Source: a bacterium (GTDB taxonomy: Bacteria > Bacteroidota > Bacteroidia > Bacteroidales > UBA1402). Taken from it: a stretch of 64,000 bases of DNA. The number at the start of each line of letters is the position of its first letter. Within the stretch, counting starts at the first letter, position 1. Positions 50,523 to 57,689 of the stretch are shown here, piece after piece. Both the position numbers and the translations under genes were made by a program. The notes under the pieces are model-generated. The model saw only the letters and a program-made list of their open reading frames with translations. It made no database searches and was not told the DNA's origin. The stretch spans positions 111,163 through 175,162 of the forward strand of contig CAVEPA010000002.1 in NCBI GenBank assembly GCA_963617485.1. Reading direction: 5' to 3'.

Positions 50523-51616
50523 TGAAGATGCAGCGTTTCATCATCCCATTTCTGCTTTTAGCCCTTGTGGCTATGGCTAAGCCCGTCTGTGCCCAAACTC
50601 GGGACAACGGACCGCAGTGGGTATACAAGCTTGAGGCGCTCAATTATTTCGACAACCGCGAGTATAAAGCCGATATCCAGCACTCGCAAACCATTTTCGC
50701 CACCCGCCTGTCACCCGAGGTAGGCTTGGCTGTCAATGATGAGCTACGAGGCTTGCAACATCGCCTGATGTTGGGTTTGCATTTTACCAAGGAAATGGGC
50801 AAAACCATCGATGAAAAGAGCTTTATCCCCACCGTTTACTACCACCTGCATCATCAGCCTTCGGGTTTTAGCATGAGCTTGGGTTCGTTGCCGTATACTC
50901 TTCTCAGCGAGGACCTTCCCGCCTATATTTTATACGATTCCATCGCGTATGCCAGACCGAATATACAGGGCGCGTTGTTGCAATACCGCAGCAACCGTGC
51001 TTTTGCCGATTTTATCTGCGATTGGCGTTCCATGCAGACCCTGGAGCAGCGCGAGGCCTTTCGGCTGATTCTCAACGGTCAATATCGTTGGAATATCTTG
51101 GCAGCAGGGGCCTTGATGCAGATGAACCATCTGGCCAGCTATAAATTTCAAAAGAACGGCGTTTGCGATGATATGTTGCTGCAACCCTACCTTAGTTTGA
51201 ATCTGCCTTTGCTGGACAGCCTTCAGCTCAAGGCCGGTTACCTGCTTTCTTACCAGTGCGACCGGACATCGCCCATGACCCCCAGTTGGACGCAAGCCTT
51301 GGTGTTGGATGTGTGTGCCCGCTGGAAACATCTGGGCATCAAAAACAGCCTTTATGTAGGAAGCAATTTGCAATCCTTGTACGATGCTTATGGCAGCCTG
51401 CTTTATCAAGGAGATTCCTTCTATCGCTCTTCCCTGTACAACCGTTGCGACTTGTATGTTTATCTGTTCCGCAACAATTTTGTCAATTGCCTTTTTTCCT
51501 GGAATCTACATTATACTAAAGAATATGGTCTGGATTATCAACAACAGCTCATCTGCCGCTTTTCGACCGACGGCTTGAGACAGAACCGGGCCATTCGTAA
51601 CCTTTTTGGAAAATGA
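50522..51616 (+). CDS. Secreted protein of unknown function (possible beta-barrel)
   Basis: 364 aa with signal peptide MKMQRFIIPFLLLALVAMAKPVCAQ, and rich in Y/L/N/Q. The ATG overlaps the priA stop (TAATG) and its stop overlaps the next ATG (ATGA). Confidence 0.5.
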   Translation: MKMQRFIIPFLLLALVAMAKPVCAQTRDNGPQWVYKLEALNYFDNREYKADIQHSQTIFATRLSPEVGLAVNDELRGLQHRLMLGLHFTKEMGKTIDEKSFIPTVYYHLHHQPSGFSMSLGSLPYTLLSEDLPAYILYDSIAYARPNIQGALLQYRSNRAFADFICDWRSMQTLEQREAFRLILNGQYRWNILAAGALMQMNHLASYKFQKNGVCDDMLLQPYLSLNLPLLDSLQLKAGYLLSYQCDRTSPMTPSWTQALVLDVCARWKHLGIKNSLYVGSNLQSLYDAYGSLLYQGDSFYRSSLYNRCDLYVYLFRNNFVNCLFSWNLHYTKEYGLDYQQQLICRFSTDGLRQNRAIRNLFGK

Positions 51617-52563
51617 TACAGTATTTGCTTATTGTAGTCGGCTTTGTCTTGCTGACATTCGGTGCCGACTTTTTGGTTGACGGTTCGAGCAGTGTGGCAA
51701 AACGTCTGAAAATATCCGATTTGCTTATCGGTCTTACCGTGGTGGCTTTCGGAACTTCGGCACCCGAACTGGTAGTGAACATCGTGGCCTCGGTGGAAGG
51801 TAACAACGAATTGGCCATGACCAATATCCTGGGAAGCAACACTATCAATGTCTTTATCATTCTGGGCTTGTCGGCAGCCATTTATCCCATCTATTGCCAA
51901 CGCAGCCTGCGGCATTTCGAGATACCTCTGGCCACTTTGGGCGGTCTGCTGGTGTTACTGTTGGGCACCGACTTCTTTGTAACTTCCGCACCGAGAGAGC
52001 TCTCGCGTTGGGATGCCGCCGTCATGCTGATGTTTTTCGCTTTCTTTATGTATCAGACCATTAAGACCGGCATTAAGGCGGGTGACGATGAAGCCGAAGA
52101 AGTGAAAGTGAAATCTTGGGGATTGTCTGTGCTGATGATAGTGGGCGGTTTGGTCATGCTGGTGGTAGGCGGCGATATCATCGTGAAATCGGCCACGGCC
52201 ATCGCCCGCAGCTGGGGCGTAAGCGATGCTATTATCGGTGTAACGGTGGTGGCTTTGGGAACATCCCTGCCCGAACTGGCCACCTCGGTGATGGCCGTTA
52301 TCAAGAAGAACGGCGACATGGCCATCGGCAACATCATCGGCAGCAATATCTTCAATATCTTCTTTATCCTGTCGGTGAGCGCCATGATACATCCGCTGCA
52401 GTACTATCCCAACATGATATTGGATGCTGTCATGGCATTTTTGGGATGCTTCCTGGTGATGCTCTTCGTAGCAAAAGGAAAACATCGCATAGGACATTGG
52501 CAAGGTGTGTTCATGCTCGTTGTCTATGCGATGTATCTTTACCTGCTTATCCGCAGTCTCTGA
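51613..52563 (+). CDS. CaCA-family cation/Ca2+ antiporter (YrbG-like), paralogue 1
   Basis: 316 aa. Both alpha-repeats are present: GTSAPELVV...GSNTINV and GTSLPELATS...GSNIFNI. Confidence 0.9.
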   Translation: MIQYLLIVVGFVLLTFGADFLVDGSSSVAKRLKISDLLIGLTVVAFGTSAPELVVNIVASVEGNNELAMTNILGSNTINVFIILGLSAAIYPIYCQRSLRHFEIPLATLGGLLVLLLGTDFFVTSAPRELSRWDAAVMLMFFAFFMYQTIKTGIKAGDDEAEEVKVKSWGLSVLMIVGGLVMLVVGGDIIVKSATAIARSWGVSDAIIGVTVVALGTSLPELATSVMAVIKKNGDMAIGNIIGSNIFNIFFILSVSAMIHPLQYYPNMILDAVMAFLGCFLVMLFVAKGKHRIGHWQGVFMLVVYAMYLYLLIRSL

Positions 52564-54052: not shown

Positions 54053-54694
54053 ATGATGAAAAGCGATATCGTCCAATATATCGAGCAAGAAATCTTGCCC
54101 CAGTACGAGAACTTCGATATGGCGCACCGTGGCGGACACGTGCGTGCAGTGATACAGCGGGCGCTGGAACTCGTTCCCTATTATCCGGTGGATGAAAACA
54201 TGGTGTATGTGGCGGCGGCCTATCACGACCTGGGTCTGGCGTATGGCCGGGAGCTACACCACCTCTATTCTGGCCGCCGCCTGCGCGGGGACACCCGTCT
54301 GGCGCGGTGGTTTACCACCGGCCAGATCGAGGTGATGGCGCAGGCGGCGGAAGACCATCGTGCCAGCGCACAAACCGAGCCGCGCAACATTTATGGCAAG
54401 ATAGTGGCCGAGGCCGACCGCCTTATCGATGCCGATATGGTGATACGGCGCACGCTTCAGTACGGCTTGGACCATTGTCCTCAATTCACCGAGGACGGAC
54501 ACTGCGAGCGGGCCTTGCACCATTTGCGCGAAAAGTACGGCCGCGGCGGCTATCTGAAGGTATTCTTGCCCGAATCGCCCAATGCGGCGGCTCTGGAAAA
54601 TCTTCAAGCACTTATTGCCGACGAAGCGAAAATTCGCCCGCTGCTGCACGAAATCTTCCGCTCTCTAACGCAAAATGGAGGCGCAGTCTCTTAA
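54053..54694 (+). CDS. HD-domain phosphohydrolase
   Basis: Contains HRGGHVRAV...AAAYHDLG (H...HD) and EADRL. It is 213 aa from ATG 54053. Confidence 0.8.
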   Translation: MMKSDIVQYIEQEILPQYENFDMAHRGGHVRAVIQRALELVPYYPVDENMVYVAAAYHDLGLAYGRELHHLYSGRRLRGDTRLARWFTTGQIEVMAQAAEDHRASAQTEPRNIYGKIVAEADRLIDADMVIRRTLQYGLDHCPQFTEDGHCERALHHLREKYGRGGYLKVFLPESPNAAALENLQALIADEAKIRPLLHEIFRSLTQNGGAVS

Positions 54695-55083
54695 ATCACT
54701 TTTTCTACCATCAATTCCCATGTTACACAATGTAATGCTCCACCTCTTTTTACAAGTGGCATTGCATATATCGGCATAATTTCCTTATTCGGAAACAATC
54801 TTGTCATCAAGTGGATTGCCTCTATATCATTGGGATAGTCATTCAAATAGCACCATGAGTCTGGCTCCAACTGACAATCATAGTTCAATTCCACAACATC
54901 AAAATGAGCATCAAGTATTTTCCGCAACCTTCTGTAAAACGCCTTCACTTGACATCTTGCATGTAATTCTAGGGAAGGCTACACATACAAAATCTTCTTG
55001 GCTAGTTCTGTAAACTCATTGGTAATTGATTCTTCAGAGGATGTGCCGCCATGGAAAGTCTTAAGCAAATCGTTAAGTGTCAT
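54691..55083 (-). pseudogene. Small gene interrupted by one in-frame TAG (54979-54981). The C-terminal part carries a GG-x-x-HC-x-T motif reminiscent of guanidino-modifying enzymes.
   Basis: Hand translation from ATG 55083 gives MTLNDLLKTFHGGTSSEESITNEFTELAKKILYV-TAG-PSLELHARCQ. It then continues in the same frame into the track ORF (VKAFYRRLRK...LFPNKEIMPIYAMPLVKRGGALHCVTWELMVEKVI). It has its own -7 promoter. Its stop overlaps the HD gene stop (TTAA). Confidence 0.4.
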
Positions 55084-55107
55084 GATGAAGTCTTTTGTTT
55101 CTTGAAG

Positions 55108-55115
55108 CAAAGGTA
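55108..55115 (-). promoter_or_regulatory. -7 promoter element (TACCTTTG) for the interrupted gene
   Basis: Plus-strand caaaggta, 25 nt upstream of the ATG at 55083. Confidence 0.5.
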
Positions 55116-55161
55116 ACCCTTTTTCCAAGATTGACAACCGGTAGGTCGGGCGTTCCAAGGT

Positions 55162-55233: not shown

Positions 55234-55261
55234 TACGATTTCGAAAAAATGTTAGAGAGTG

Positions 55262-55666
55262 ATGAAACTGGTAATCAGTATATTGTTCGGTCTGCTGCTC
55301 GAGTGGTTTTCTCCAGCCTCGGGTGTCCCTTCCGCTGCTTCGGCAGAGAAAGACGCTCGATGTGCTTCTGGCAAACTGTCCGAGTGGTTGAATATCGACT
55401 TTGGAGATGCCACCCTGCAACCCACGGCCCAAAACACCTATTCGGTGACGGTGAAACAGTGGCAGCAGATTCTCAACTTTAGGATTCGTGCCGAAAAACG
55501 TAGCTATTATCGTCTTTTCAGAAGCGACAATACTCATCTTAACTTGCATCAGAAGTACCATGAAATCAATCATCTACTCGATTCTGTAGATTTTAGTGTA
55601 TTGCTTTCATCGTTTCGCCACGAGCCGAACGCTCTGCAAACTTTTTATTGTGTTTATCGGATTTGA
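55262..55666 (+). CDS. Small secreted protein of unknown function
   Basis: 134 aa from ATG 55262 (the track start at 55259 is GTG). The N-terminus MKLVISILFGLLLEWFSPASG is signal-peptide-like. I recognise no family. Confidence 0.45.
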   Translation: MKLVISILFGLLLEWFSPASGVPSAASAEKDARCASGKLSEWLNIDFGDATLQPTAQNTYSVTVKQWQQILNFRIRAEKRSYYRLFRSDNTHLNLHQKYHEINHLLDSVDFSVLLSSFRHEPNALQTFYCVYRI

Positions 55667-55708
55667 TATTGATGGAGAATTATTCATAACGGATACCAAC
55701 TTGTAGAC

Positions 55709-56149
55709 ATGGAAACAACCTTTATAAAAGCCAGAAATTTTTCCGATTACGCCTTCTCTGTATCAGTGTTCTTATTCGGCCTTACGCTGGTTCTAGTTCC
55801 TACCAGTTTTGGCATGAATGTTGTCGGAGGTGTGATTATCGTCACCGGTATGATTATGTTCTTTGCGCTCAGAAGCGTTTGGAAAGATGTGAGAACCGGC
55901 GATTTATATCGAGGCAGGGTATTGTATTTCAATAATTCCAAGAAGCAAGCCGTTATGGAAGCGCTAGCCGACGAGCTCTCCAAACTCTCCGAAATTCCTC
56001 AGGAAAACAAAGCGTACAATAGCCTGCGTCTGTACATGTATTATAATAAGCGCAAAGGTAAGTGCTATTGCGAGCTATACGAATATGTTCCATGCGAGTA
56101 TGTTCCTCTGACTGAACTTCTTCTCTTCAAAATAGGGGGGGGGATTTAG
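55709..56149 (+). CDS. 2-TM membrane protein of unknown function, tandem paralogue 1
   Basis: 146 aa. Predicted TMs lie at about residues 14-31 and 36-54, followed by a ~90-aa soluble domain ending in YCELYEYVPCEYVPLTELLLFKIGGGI. A G9 tract encodes GGG two codons before the stop. Confidence 0.55.
   Translation: METTFIKARNFSDYAFSVSVFLFGLTLVLVPTSFGMNVVGGVIIVTGMIMFFALRSVWKDVRTGDLYRGRVLYFNNSKKQAVMEALADELSKLSEIPQENKAYNSLRLYMYYNKRKGKCYCELYEYVPCEYVPLTELLLFKIGGGI
56135..56143 (+). repeat. G9 homopolymer near the 3' end of paralogue 1
   Basis: Counted directly: 9 consecutive G at 56135-56143. Confidence 0.95.
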
Positions 56150-56230
56150 AAGGACTTCTCTGAATTGTCGGAGATTTGGTGAATCGTCTTAGAAAAACTT
56201 TTCACCAATCAACTACAATTAAGAATCATT

Positions 56231-56695
56231 ATGGAAAATACTTTTGTCAAATATAGAACGCTAACCGATTATATTATCTCTTTGTCAGTATTCCTTCTCG
56301 GCCTAGTACTGATTATGCTTTCCTCTACGGCCGCTATGAACATCGCCGGTGCCATGATTGTCATCCTTGGCGTGGTATTGTTCTTTTCTCTTAGAAGCGC
56401 CTGGAAAGAAGTTGTTACCGGCGATACTTATCATGGCAAGGTGCTGTATTACAACCGCTCTAAAAAACAGGCCATTCTTGATGCGCTCACCAGTGATTTC
56501 TCCAAGATCTCCGAAATAGACCAAGAAGAAAACGCCCAAAAGAGTCTGCGACTGGATGTCTATTACAATGAGGCCAAGGGCAAGTACTACTGCCGTCTGT
56601 ACGAATATATCCCTTACGAGTATGTGCCTCAAACTGAGTTACTTGTCCTCCAAATGGGGGGGGGAGAAAAACCTCTCCGCTATCGTCTCAGGTAA
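56231..56695 (+). CDS. 2-TM membrane protein of unknown function, tandem paralogue 2
   Basis: 154 aa, collinear with paralogue 1. Shared strings include TF.K.R...DY, LRS.WK.V.TGD.Y.G.VLY.N.SKKQA, SLRL..YYN..KGK.YC.LYEY.P.EYVP.TELL and GGG. Its G9 tract is at the equivalent position. Confidence 0.55.
   Translation: MENTFVKYRTLTDYIISLSVFLLGLVLIMLSSTAAMNIAGAMIVILGVVLFFSLRSAWKEVVTGDTYHGKVLYYNRSKKQAILDALTSDFSKISEIDQEENAQKSLRLDVYYNEAKGKYYCRLYEYIPYEYVPQTELLVLQMGGGEKPLRYRLR
56656..56664 (+). repeat. G9 homopolymer near the 3' end of paralogue 2
   Basis: Counted directly: 9 consecutive G at 56656-56664. The first G is the third base of an ATG codon. Confidence 0.95.
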
Positions 56696-56735
56696 ATAGA
56701 ACAATTCGTTAAAAAGGTTCTTAATAACTTCAATA

Positions 56736-57689
56736 ATGATGACATGGATTTATCTTCTGCTCTCGCTGGCGGCTGTTGTCGTAGGAGCGGAAGTCTTGGT
56801 CGATGGCTCTGTGGCCATAGCCAGAAAATTCAAGATTGCAGACTTTATCATTGGTGCCACCATCGTCGGGATAGGAACCTCCTGTCCCGAGTTGGTGGTG
56901 AGCCTTGTAGGAGCAATCGATAACAACGCCGACATCGCCATCGGCAACGTAGTGGGGTCGAATATCTGCAACATCCTGCTCATTTTGGGTATATCGGCAC
57001 TCATCACCCCGCTGCCCATCCTCAAAGAGAATGTTAAGTTCGAATTGCCGTACTGCATAGGTGTTTCGCTTCTGCTTTGTCTGTTGGTCTACGATTTCTT
57101 CACGGCTACTTGCCCCATGCTGGGTCGGCTGGATGGTCTGATACTGTTGGCCGTCTTTGCCGTTTACATGTATCTGTCGCTGCGTAATGGCAAGAAGGGA
57201 ACCACGTCCGGAACTGAACAGCCCGACAAGGCTCCTGTGAAGGAAGTGCATCGGAAGACAATATGGATAGTGCTGGAGATTCTTTTCGGTTTGGCCATCC
57301 TTATCACTGGAAGTCATTTCTTTGTAGATGAAGCGGTAGTCGTAGCCCGTCAGTTGGGTGTGAGCGATGCCTTTATCTCCATTACGGTGCTGGCTGTGGG
57401 AACTTCCCTGCCCGAGCTCGCGGCTTCGGTGGCTTCTGCCGTCAAGAAGAATGCACAATTGGCCCTTGGCAATATTATCGGTTCGAACATCTTCAACATC
57501 AGTTTTATTTTGGGTGTCTGCTCGCAGGTAACGCCTCTAACTGCCGGTGGAATCGGTATTTTCGATTACGGAATGATGATGGTAGCCGCTTTGATGCCTC
57601 TCCTTTTTGCGCTTAAGGGAAGAATCAGCCGTTTCGGCGGAATATTCATGTTGGCTATGTACGTGGCCTACCTGATTTATCTTAAATGA
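56736..57689 (+). CDS. CaCA-family cation/Ca2+ antiporter (YrbG-like), paralogue 2
   Basis: 317 aa with alpha-repeats GTSCPELVVS...GSNICNI and GTSLPELAAS...GSNIFNI. I estimate roughly 40% identity to paralogue 1 by eye. Confidence 0.9.
   Translation: MMTWIYLLLSLAAVVVGAEVLVDGSVAIARKFKIADFIIGATIVGIGTSCPELVVSLVGAIDNNADIAIGNVVGSNICNILLILGISALITPLPILKENVKFELPYCIGVSLLLCLLVYDFFTATCPMLGRLDGLILLAVFAVYMYLSLRNGKKGTTSGTEQPDKAPVKEVHRKTIWIVLEILFGLAILITGSHFFVDEAVVVARQLGVSDAFISITVLAVGTSLPELAASVASAVKKNAQLALGNIIGSNIFNISFILGVCSQVTPLTAGGIGIFDYGMMMVAALMPLLFALKGRISRFGGIFMLAMYVAYLIYLK

Follow-up and report, generated by a model that had tools for sequence, protein, structure and literature searches.

Length-variable poly-G tracts at the 3′ ends of two tandem membrane-protein genes in a gut Bacteroidales lineage: candidates for C-terminal phase variation

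Why should two adjacent genes for a small membrane protein each carry, within their last codons, an uninterrupted run of guanines? The question is raised by a 64,000-nucleotide stretch of DNA (hereafter the window) from an uncultured gut Bacteroidales bacterium (GTDB lineage UBA1402; contig CAVEPA010000002.1 of assembly GCA_963617485.1). Here gene A (55709–56149) and gene B (56231–56695), both on the forward strand, stand in tandem and encode proteins of 146 and 154 amino acids, each predicted to contain two transmembrane helices (2-TM). Both read through a run of nine guanines (G9), at 56135–56143 in A and at 56656–56664 in B, on the forward strand. These tracts, overlooked in a first-pass annotation made from the sequence alone, are the most unusual feature of the locus. 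Of the explanations considered, the best overall is that A and B are accessory partners of an ion-transport module and undergo C-terminal phase variation through slippage of their poly-G tracts; we place its probability at roughly 0.55.

The two G9 tracts are the only G/C homopolymers longer than five nucleotides in the entire 64 kb. GGG is the rarest glycine codon of the window (6%), and the glycine codons of A and B outside the tracts are GGC, GGT or GGA. Among related assemblies both tracts vary in length. Tract A ranges from G7 to G11 (19 assemblies: two with G7, one with G8, six each with G9 and G10, four with G11) and tract B from G7 to G12 (20 assemblies: two with G7, two with G8, each of these a point-interrupted G10, seven with G9, eight with G10 and one with G12). 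The 20 assemblies, from at least three data sets, hold 13 distinct complete combinations of A and B tract lengths. An alignment of 13 assemblies of the window lineage (3,063 columns) contains approximately 20 columns with single-nucleotide polymorphisms (SNPs), and these assemblies are therefore distinct strains. Apart from one lower-quality outlier (L034), the insertions and deletions in the 3 kb alignments are confined to the two tracts; the A6 and T6 runs of the same region are invariant across the aligned assemblies. Within a single SNP-defined clade (L022, L023 and L025) tract A is found as G11, G7 and G8.

A sister lineage also has both tracts. The glycine-run insertion is absent from the single-copy orthologues and from all other 149 family representatives: the tracts are a lineage-specific, hypermutable feature. 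Phase-variable loci of the simple sequence repeat (SSR) type are recognised by an exceptional homopolymer of at least about seven units inside a coding region, by a tract length that is polymorphic among near-identical strains whatever their SNP background, and by a frame change that leads to a defined change of product. All of these are found here, with three tails for each gene.

What a change of length does to the product can be read from database proteins of both clusters, which are identical up to the glycine run and then continue in all three frames, giving lengths of 144–161 amino acids. For A the alternatives past the run are I*, DLEGLL* and FRRTSLNCRRFGESS* (where * marks the stop). 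The tracts lie directly past the last β-strand, in a lineage-specific loop insertion that precedes the C-terminal helix. In the family at large the 20 residues past a conserved tyrosine end in an amphipathic motif, for example VNKFIK or IKTLIK. A helix of this type is encoded in B (LSSQVNRTIR and stop, 56680–56712, forward strand), where it is out of frame in the G9 state and is read only at G7 or G10. Scored against a position-specific scoring matrix of the last nine family residues, the G7/G10 frame of B (…SSQVNRTIR) matches at the anchored end with p = 0.004, or approximately 0.02 after correction for six gene-frame combinations; if the best window anywhere in the tail is taken, p = 0.06. 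The other two frames of B give p > 0.6. MAFFT aligns the same tail to the family C-terminus across a nine-residue insertion (GGRKTSPLS) that holds the tract. AlphaFold predicts a helix at residues 149–158 in a G7 allele (P0001; predicted local distance difference test score, pLDDT, ∼66) and no secondary structure in the tail of the window's G9 allele (pLDDT ∼49).

In two kinds of allele the family-helix frame of B is fixed. In L034 and L035 the tract reads G8-A-G, that is, a G10 interrupted by a G to A change; in L004 (5326–5340) a G7 tract is accompanied by an adjacent 8-nt deletion (GGAGAAAA). In the window both tracts are G9 and therefore B lacks the family-type helix, ending instead in the non-family tail EKPLRYRLR, and A ends one residue past its glycine run. 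Both window copies are probably in non-ancestral tail frames.

The two genes are unmistakably related. Their products share 81 of 145 residues (56%; 77% positives, BLASTP E = 2e-65) and align end to end without a gap, as the first-pass annotation had described; the coordinates, product lengths, N-termini and motifs it gave are also exact. At the nucleotide level identity is 66%. Over the 141 codons 5′ of the glycine run the Nei–Gojobori method gives a non-synonymous divergence (dN) of 0.31 and a synonymous divergence (dS) of 1.42, a ratio (ω) of ∼0.22, far from the value of 1 that would have signalled decay. The duplication must therefore be old, and selection constrains both copies; tail-frame changes aside, both are unbroken in all 20 assemblies examined. 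These figures uphold the earlier view of an old duplication with two intact copies, both under purifying selection. Both paralogues keep their tracts although the synonymous sites around them have been scrambled (dS ∼1.4); that the tracts have outlasted so old a duplication in each copy speaks for selection on mutability itself.

The tandem pair is present only in the window lineage (L001–3, L021–29, L033–35) and in one sister lineage (L004, L030–32); all other species examined have a single copy of the 2-TM gene. Between the two sister lineages the copies behave differently: at equal dS (∼0.17) ω is 0.05 for B and 0.36 for A, and the proteins are 98% and 88% identical, respectively. B is also closer to the nearest single-copy orthologues (56–61% identity, against 43–48% for A). 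These comparisons point to an asymmetric duplication in which B, the conserved, ancestral-like copy, appears to keep the ancestral role and A, the faster-evolving one, appears to be relaxed or diversifying.

The pair are tandem duplicates, specific to this lineage, of an uncharacterised family of inner-membrane proteins that occurs mainly in Bacteroidales. The annotation did not recognise the family, and neither do the databases: for A, B and the gene upstream of them (U, described below) there is no match in Pfam, NCBIfam, PADLOC or PHROG, the best for A and B being no better than E = 0.02, and 72 family members give no consistent Pfam match but only scattered noise of the transmembrane type. 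An exhaustive search with a profile hidden Markov model (HMM) of 1.84 billion representatives yielded 257 clusters at 50% identity (E ≤ 1e-3), 82 of them at E ≤ 1e-10 and nearly all with members of 145–150 amino acids. A word-indexed search of 5.8 billion proteins found just three clusters, and so badly under-reports the family. The only NCBI name attached to a member is ‘hypothetical protein’. Relatives in GTDB species genomes occur in metagenome-assembled genomes (MAGs) of gut Bacteroidales (unclassified Bacteroidales, Alistipes, Tidjanibacter and Cryptobacteroides); the contigs of two relatives are binned under other phyla. These two (L017 and L018) belong to a subgroup with 159-aa products, encoded between CysS and NifU-like/GGGtGRT genes, and are labelled Eggerthellaceae and Acutalibacteraceae. 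Their gene order is common to the Bacteroidales contigs L019 and L020, and the labels probably reflect mis-binning rather than transfer across phyla.

An AlphaFold2 model of B, built for the window's G9 allele on a 72-sequence alignment, is predicted with high confidence (mean pLDDT 92; predicted template modelling score 0.79) and agrees with the architecture proposed earlier of two transmembrane helices and a soluble domain of ∼90 residues. A strand (residues 5–8) is followed by the helices of the transmembrane hairpin (11–30 and 34–53, pLDDT 97–98; 56261–56389, forward strand), strands 57–60 and 66–74, helices 76–87 and 90–95, strands 106–113, 118–127, 130–133 and 138–141, and a low-confidence tail. 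The hairpin of A (residues ∼11–53; 55739–55867, forward strand) is homologous to that of B without gaps. A search with sequence profiles against the PDB returned only transmembrane-helix noise (E ≥ 0.27), and the predicted model has no fold match in the PDB or, among viral folds, in BFVD. The family is unnamed and its fold is without a match in the libraries searched.

The hairpin of A has two lysine or arginine residues before it, none in its loop and four after it; in B the inter-helix loop is short and uncharged, with lysine or arginine on both flanks. Under the positive-inside rule this distribution would place the N-terminus and the soluble domain in the cytoplasm, and the soluble α/β domain probably faces that side. 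The soluble part had been called rich in cysteine and tyrosine. For tyrosine this is apt (10–11 of 87 residues); for cysteine it is not, there being one in B and three in A, of which C121 alone is common to both, in a column that is variable across the wider family.

Clues to function come from the neighbourhood. Directly upstream of A lies gene U (55259–55666, forward strand), which encodes a protein of 134–135 amino acids with a signal-like hydrophobic segment at its N-terminus. Downstream of B is the gene for a cation/Ca2+ exchanger of the CaCA family (Na_Ca_ex, PF01699, E = 3e-67; 56736–57689, forward strand), a conserved partner: the 2-TM gene is directly followed by a gene of the CaCA or the Na/Pi-PhoU type in 12 of the 16 species loci. 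The conserved block consists of a small signal-bearing protein of ∼130 amino acids, the 2-TM gene, and then a CaCA gene, a Na/Pi-cotransporter-PhoU gene or both. In five Alistipes loci and in L005 the transporter gene starts 1–2 nt past the stop of the 2-TM gene, and for the distant member P0039, with ∼32% identity to B, there is an overlap of 4 nt between the genes. Adjacency in most loci, together with gaps and overlaps of the kind associated with translational coupling, is what the accessory-subunit view asks for, here as a working hypothesis and not as the mark of an established family. Judged from gene order, the 2-TM protein is most likely an accessory or regulatory partner of an ion-transport module.

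The small upstream gene has an ω of 0.21 between the two sister species, and positional homologues of 129–137 amino acids stand upstream of the 2-TM gene in L004–L008 and L010–L013. A homologue search of 5.8 billion proteins with U found its own cluster alone. Between the U proteins of Alistipes, which end in …LGKLII, and those of the window lineage, which end in …YRI, there is no detectable similarity, and in the P0039 subgroup (L036 and L037) the upstream small gene encodes a Lipocalin_4 protein (PF13648, 136 aa) in place of a recognisable U homologue; the slot for a small secreted protein may be filled by different families.

From these elements we propose the following. In an ancestor of the window species and its sister, a nine-codon insertion with a poly-G run would have arisen between the last β-strand and the C-terminal helix, and the gene would then have duplicated, with the run retained in both copies. 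Slipped-strand mispairing would alter the length of the run, a process that may be seen in the G7–G12 alleles of near-identical strains, and each alteration would switch the last 1–18 codons among three frames and leave the core domain uninterrupted. At any time each protein would end either in its native helix or in one of two tails unrelated to it. The 2-TM gene would be expressed from an operon, after the small secreted protein and before the transporter gene, often with translational coupling to the latter. We infer that within populations the switch is thrown often and reversibly, that it has functional consequences and that the protein acts together with the transporter. A more specific version, in which an SSR contingency switch adds or removes, in combination, the C-terminal helices of two paralogous accessory subunits of a Ca2+/cation exchanger and so tunes ion transport stochastically across the population, is speculative and, in our judgement, doubtful.

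Several observations weigh against our proposal, and some of them speak for its main rival, that the tracts are tolerated mutational hot spots beyond the folded domain whose near-neutral frameshifts reflect drift and not a switch. The tract lies beyond the core domain, which extends to residue ∼141, and disorder is predicted for the G9 tail. The tail is short, and the helix predicted for the G7 allele is of modest confidence. A full-length HMM built without the window lineage scores the three frames alike, because its alignments end before the tract. All three frames occur at appreciable frequency (6, 8 and 5 assemblies for A), as neutral drift at a dispensable tail predicts, and by the scoring matrix no frame of A matches the family C-terminal motif; the resemblance of the A G8/G11 tail to the B G7/G10 tail (p = 0.01 for a DNA alignment, p = 0.18 for peptides) only weakly suggests that G8/G11 is the counterpart of that frame of B and ancestral in A. 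(A reading of the DLEGLL tail of A as the family's ‘h-x-x-h-h’ pattern was also considered and found to be unsupported, p = 0.5–0.75.) As to the transporters, with which the partnership is read from gene order, remote family members (L009, L014, the 159-aa subgroup L017–20, P0082 and P0135) have other contexts, and the Cryptobacteroides loci other neighbours. The length differences, moreover, lie between assemblies. Finally, a 2025 review of phase variation in Bacteroides covers invertase-based systems only and cites no SSR case (PMC11868660), and our literature search on SSR phase variation in Bacteroidales returned essentially nothing relevant and no paper describing homopolymer-driven switching. 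Even so, we consider drift at a neutral hot spot rather unlikely. Neutral tracts should decay through interruptions, yet the runs stand uninterrupted in both paralogues after long divergence, and in two species, in a region with no other G/C run of more than five and with little use of GGG; and the G7/G10 frame of B still encodes a family-like helix, which implies that this reading frame has been maintained. It is far harder to believe that the lengths are homopolymer sequencing or assembly errors around a fixed tract. All of the sequences are metagenome assemblies or MAGs, runs of G9–G12 are error-prone on several platforms, and L034 also has an A5 to A4 change and a run of Ns; against this stand five lengths per tract among 20 assemblies that several projects and assemblers produced, the constancy of the nearby A6 and T6 runs, the recurrence of (A,B) states across assemblies ((11,9) three times, (10,10) three times and (9,G8AG) twice), and the interrupted and deleted alleles, which are not of a type that homopolymer errors produce.

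Length changes could instead act on the RNA, by moving the stop codon and so altering translational coupling to B or the CaCA gene, or the melting by ribosomes of a hairpin in the spacer. Depending on the frame, the stop of A lies 81, 67 or 38 nt before B and that of B 40, 36 or 23 nt before the CaCA gene. The gaps are shortest, at 38 and 23 nt, in the frames that are putatively ancestral. In single-copy relatives the stop adjoins or overlaps the transporter start, but no frame restores such an arrangement here. The hairpin, an 8-bp inverted repeat (TTGGTGAA/TTCACCAA; arms at 56176–56183 and 56201–56208, forward strand) within the 81-nt spacer between A and B (56150–56230), is where the first-pass annotation placed it (56176–56208); its strength is another matter. 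The folding energy of the spacer is −18 kcal/mol (z = −1.9), a stability equalled by 10 of 200 shuffled sequences. The stop codon of the G8/G11 frame of A (56190–56192) falls in the loop, and in the sister species the stems are identical and the loop has two substitutions. We hold an effect on coupling or on the spacer to be improbable. As an intrinsic terminator the hairpin was rejected: there is no T-run 3′ of it, a terminator scan does not call it and its z-score is low. Inspection of the DNA by eye for promoter elements of the Bacteroidetes type spaced by the tracts gave nothing convincing. Nor is there much to commend a membrane-anchored immunity or sensor pair, perhaps with the upstream secreted protein as toxin or signal, which the first-pass annotation had likened A and B to. 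Such a role would fit the small 2-TM architecture, the divergence of the tandem copies and the presence beside them of a secreted protein of unassigned function. The family searches of A, B and U found no defence, phage or other domain; the window has no toxin, kinase, secretion-system, mobile-element or defence gene near A and B, their neighbours being PriA, an aminopeptidase, an HD hydrolase, transporters and glycoside hydrolases; and across genera the 2-TM gene is single-copy and syntenic with transporters, its conserved neighbours being the CaCA exchanger, the Na/Pi-PhoU transporter and the small secreted protein. With the soluble domain probably cytoplasmic, only a few residues would loop into the periplasm. 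We find such a role hardly credible.

Related candidates were dismissed on similar grounds. A role in polymorphic-toxin immunity or as a membrane sensor finds no adjacent toxin, secretion system or signalling output domain and no variable-island context; sensing in the periplasm is unsupported given the charge distribution; and a class II phage holin, which would also have two transmembrane helices, has neither a PHROG match nor a BFVD fold match to recommend it, and no phage genes nearby. C-terminal phase variation of transporter partners remains our preferred account of the locus.

The surroundings of the operon hold some further features. The operon is set among housekeeping genes, in the order PriA, a lipid-A-deacylase-like gene, a first CaCA gene, an Xaa-Pro aminopeptidase, an HD hydrolase, U-A-B, the second CaCA gene, GH106 and GH88. 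The two CaCA paralogues (51613–52563 and 56736–57689) are 4 kb apart, with a best local alignment of ∼40% identity over 141 residues. The link to the 2-TM family is confined to the second, a ∼70% ortholog of the CaCA in the single-copy loci L005 and L006, where a Na/Pi-PhoU gene, absent from the window, lies between the 2-TM gene and CaCA. U, A and B (55259–56695) have a G+C content of 0.43–0.46, compared with 0.50–0.57 in flanking genes and a window average of 0.51. Between the HD-domain gene and U, on the reverse strand (54691–55158), lie two gene remnants: a 59-aa open reading frame (54979–55158) corresponding to the first ∼34 codons of a 216-aa gene that is intact in L004 and L030–32, and an 85-aa C-terminal piece of a PAD_porph/agmatine-deiminase-like gene (54691–54948; Pfam E = 7e-9, profile positions 277–319 of 321). 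The remnants are the scar of a rearrangement or deletion just upstream of the operon.

The locus defines an unnamed and fairly large family of gut Bacteroidales, with a confidently predicted fold that has no PDB match and a consistent link to CaCA and Na/Pi transporters. It suggests, in a form open to test, that prokaryotic transporters of the Na+/Ca2+-exchanger type may have an accessory subunit, and it gives evidence for hypermutable homopolymer tracts in Bacteroidales. It also carries a warning for annotation: the ‘protein’ at this locus varies in length and tail between assemblies.

How does this compare with known systems? Small accessory subunits encoded beside their transporter are exemplified by KdpF with KdpABC. 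As there, the gene for a small membrane protein lies immediately upstream of a transporter gene, adjacent to or overlapping it, the likeness here being one of gene order; we know of no accessory subunit for prokaryotic exchangers of the CaCA/YrbG type or for Na/Pi-PhoU transporters. In architecture A and B recall bPH_2 proteins (YdbS/YdbT, PF03703) and YcxB-like proteins, which likewise have an N-terminal transmembrane hairpin, a strand-rich domain of ∼90 residues and both termini on the same side of the membrane. Unlike bPH_2 proteins they have no Pfam sequence match and no PDB fold match, and the order of their elements (an N-terminal strand before the hairpin, then β-β-α-α-β-β-β-β(-α)) is one that we take not to be PH-like.

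Campylobacter, Helicobacter, Neisseria and Haemophilus are the familiar cases of SSR-type hypervariability. The window locus shares with the on/off contingency loci of Campylobacter, Neisseria and Haemophilus a hypermutable G-run of a kind avoided in the rest of the genome, and tract alleles that are incongruent with SNP haplotypes. It differs in that the tract is at the 3′ end, so that there is no premature truncation, and in that the target is a (probably cytoplasm-facing) inner-membrane protein in a transporter operon and not a surface antigen, a glycosyltransferase or a restriction–modification enzyme.

A closer parallel is provided by Helicobacter canadensis, in which C-terminal phase variation by 3′ poly-G tracts has been proposed for eight genes (Snyder et al. 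2010, PMC2823697); the same kind of variation has also been noted in Neisseria (PMC5320596). As in H. canadensis, poly-G lies in the last codons of an intact gene and varies in length by several units, and in each of the three frames the core is full-length and the short C-terminus is a different one, the terminal helix being lost in some cases. Unlike H. canadensis, the host is an uncultured gut Bacteroidales bacterium, and the tracts are found in two tandem paralogues, one in each, making 3 × 3 tail states possible.

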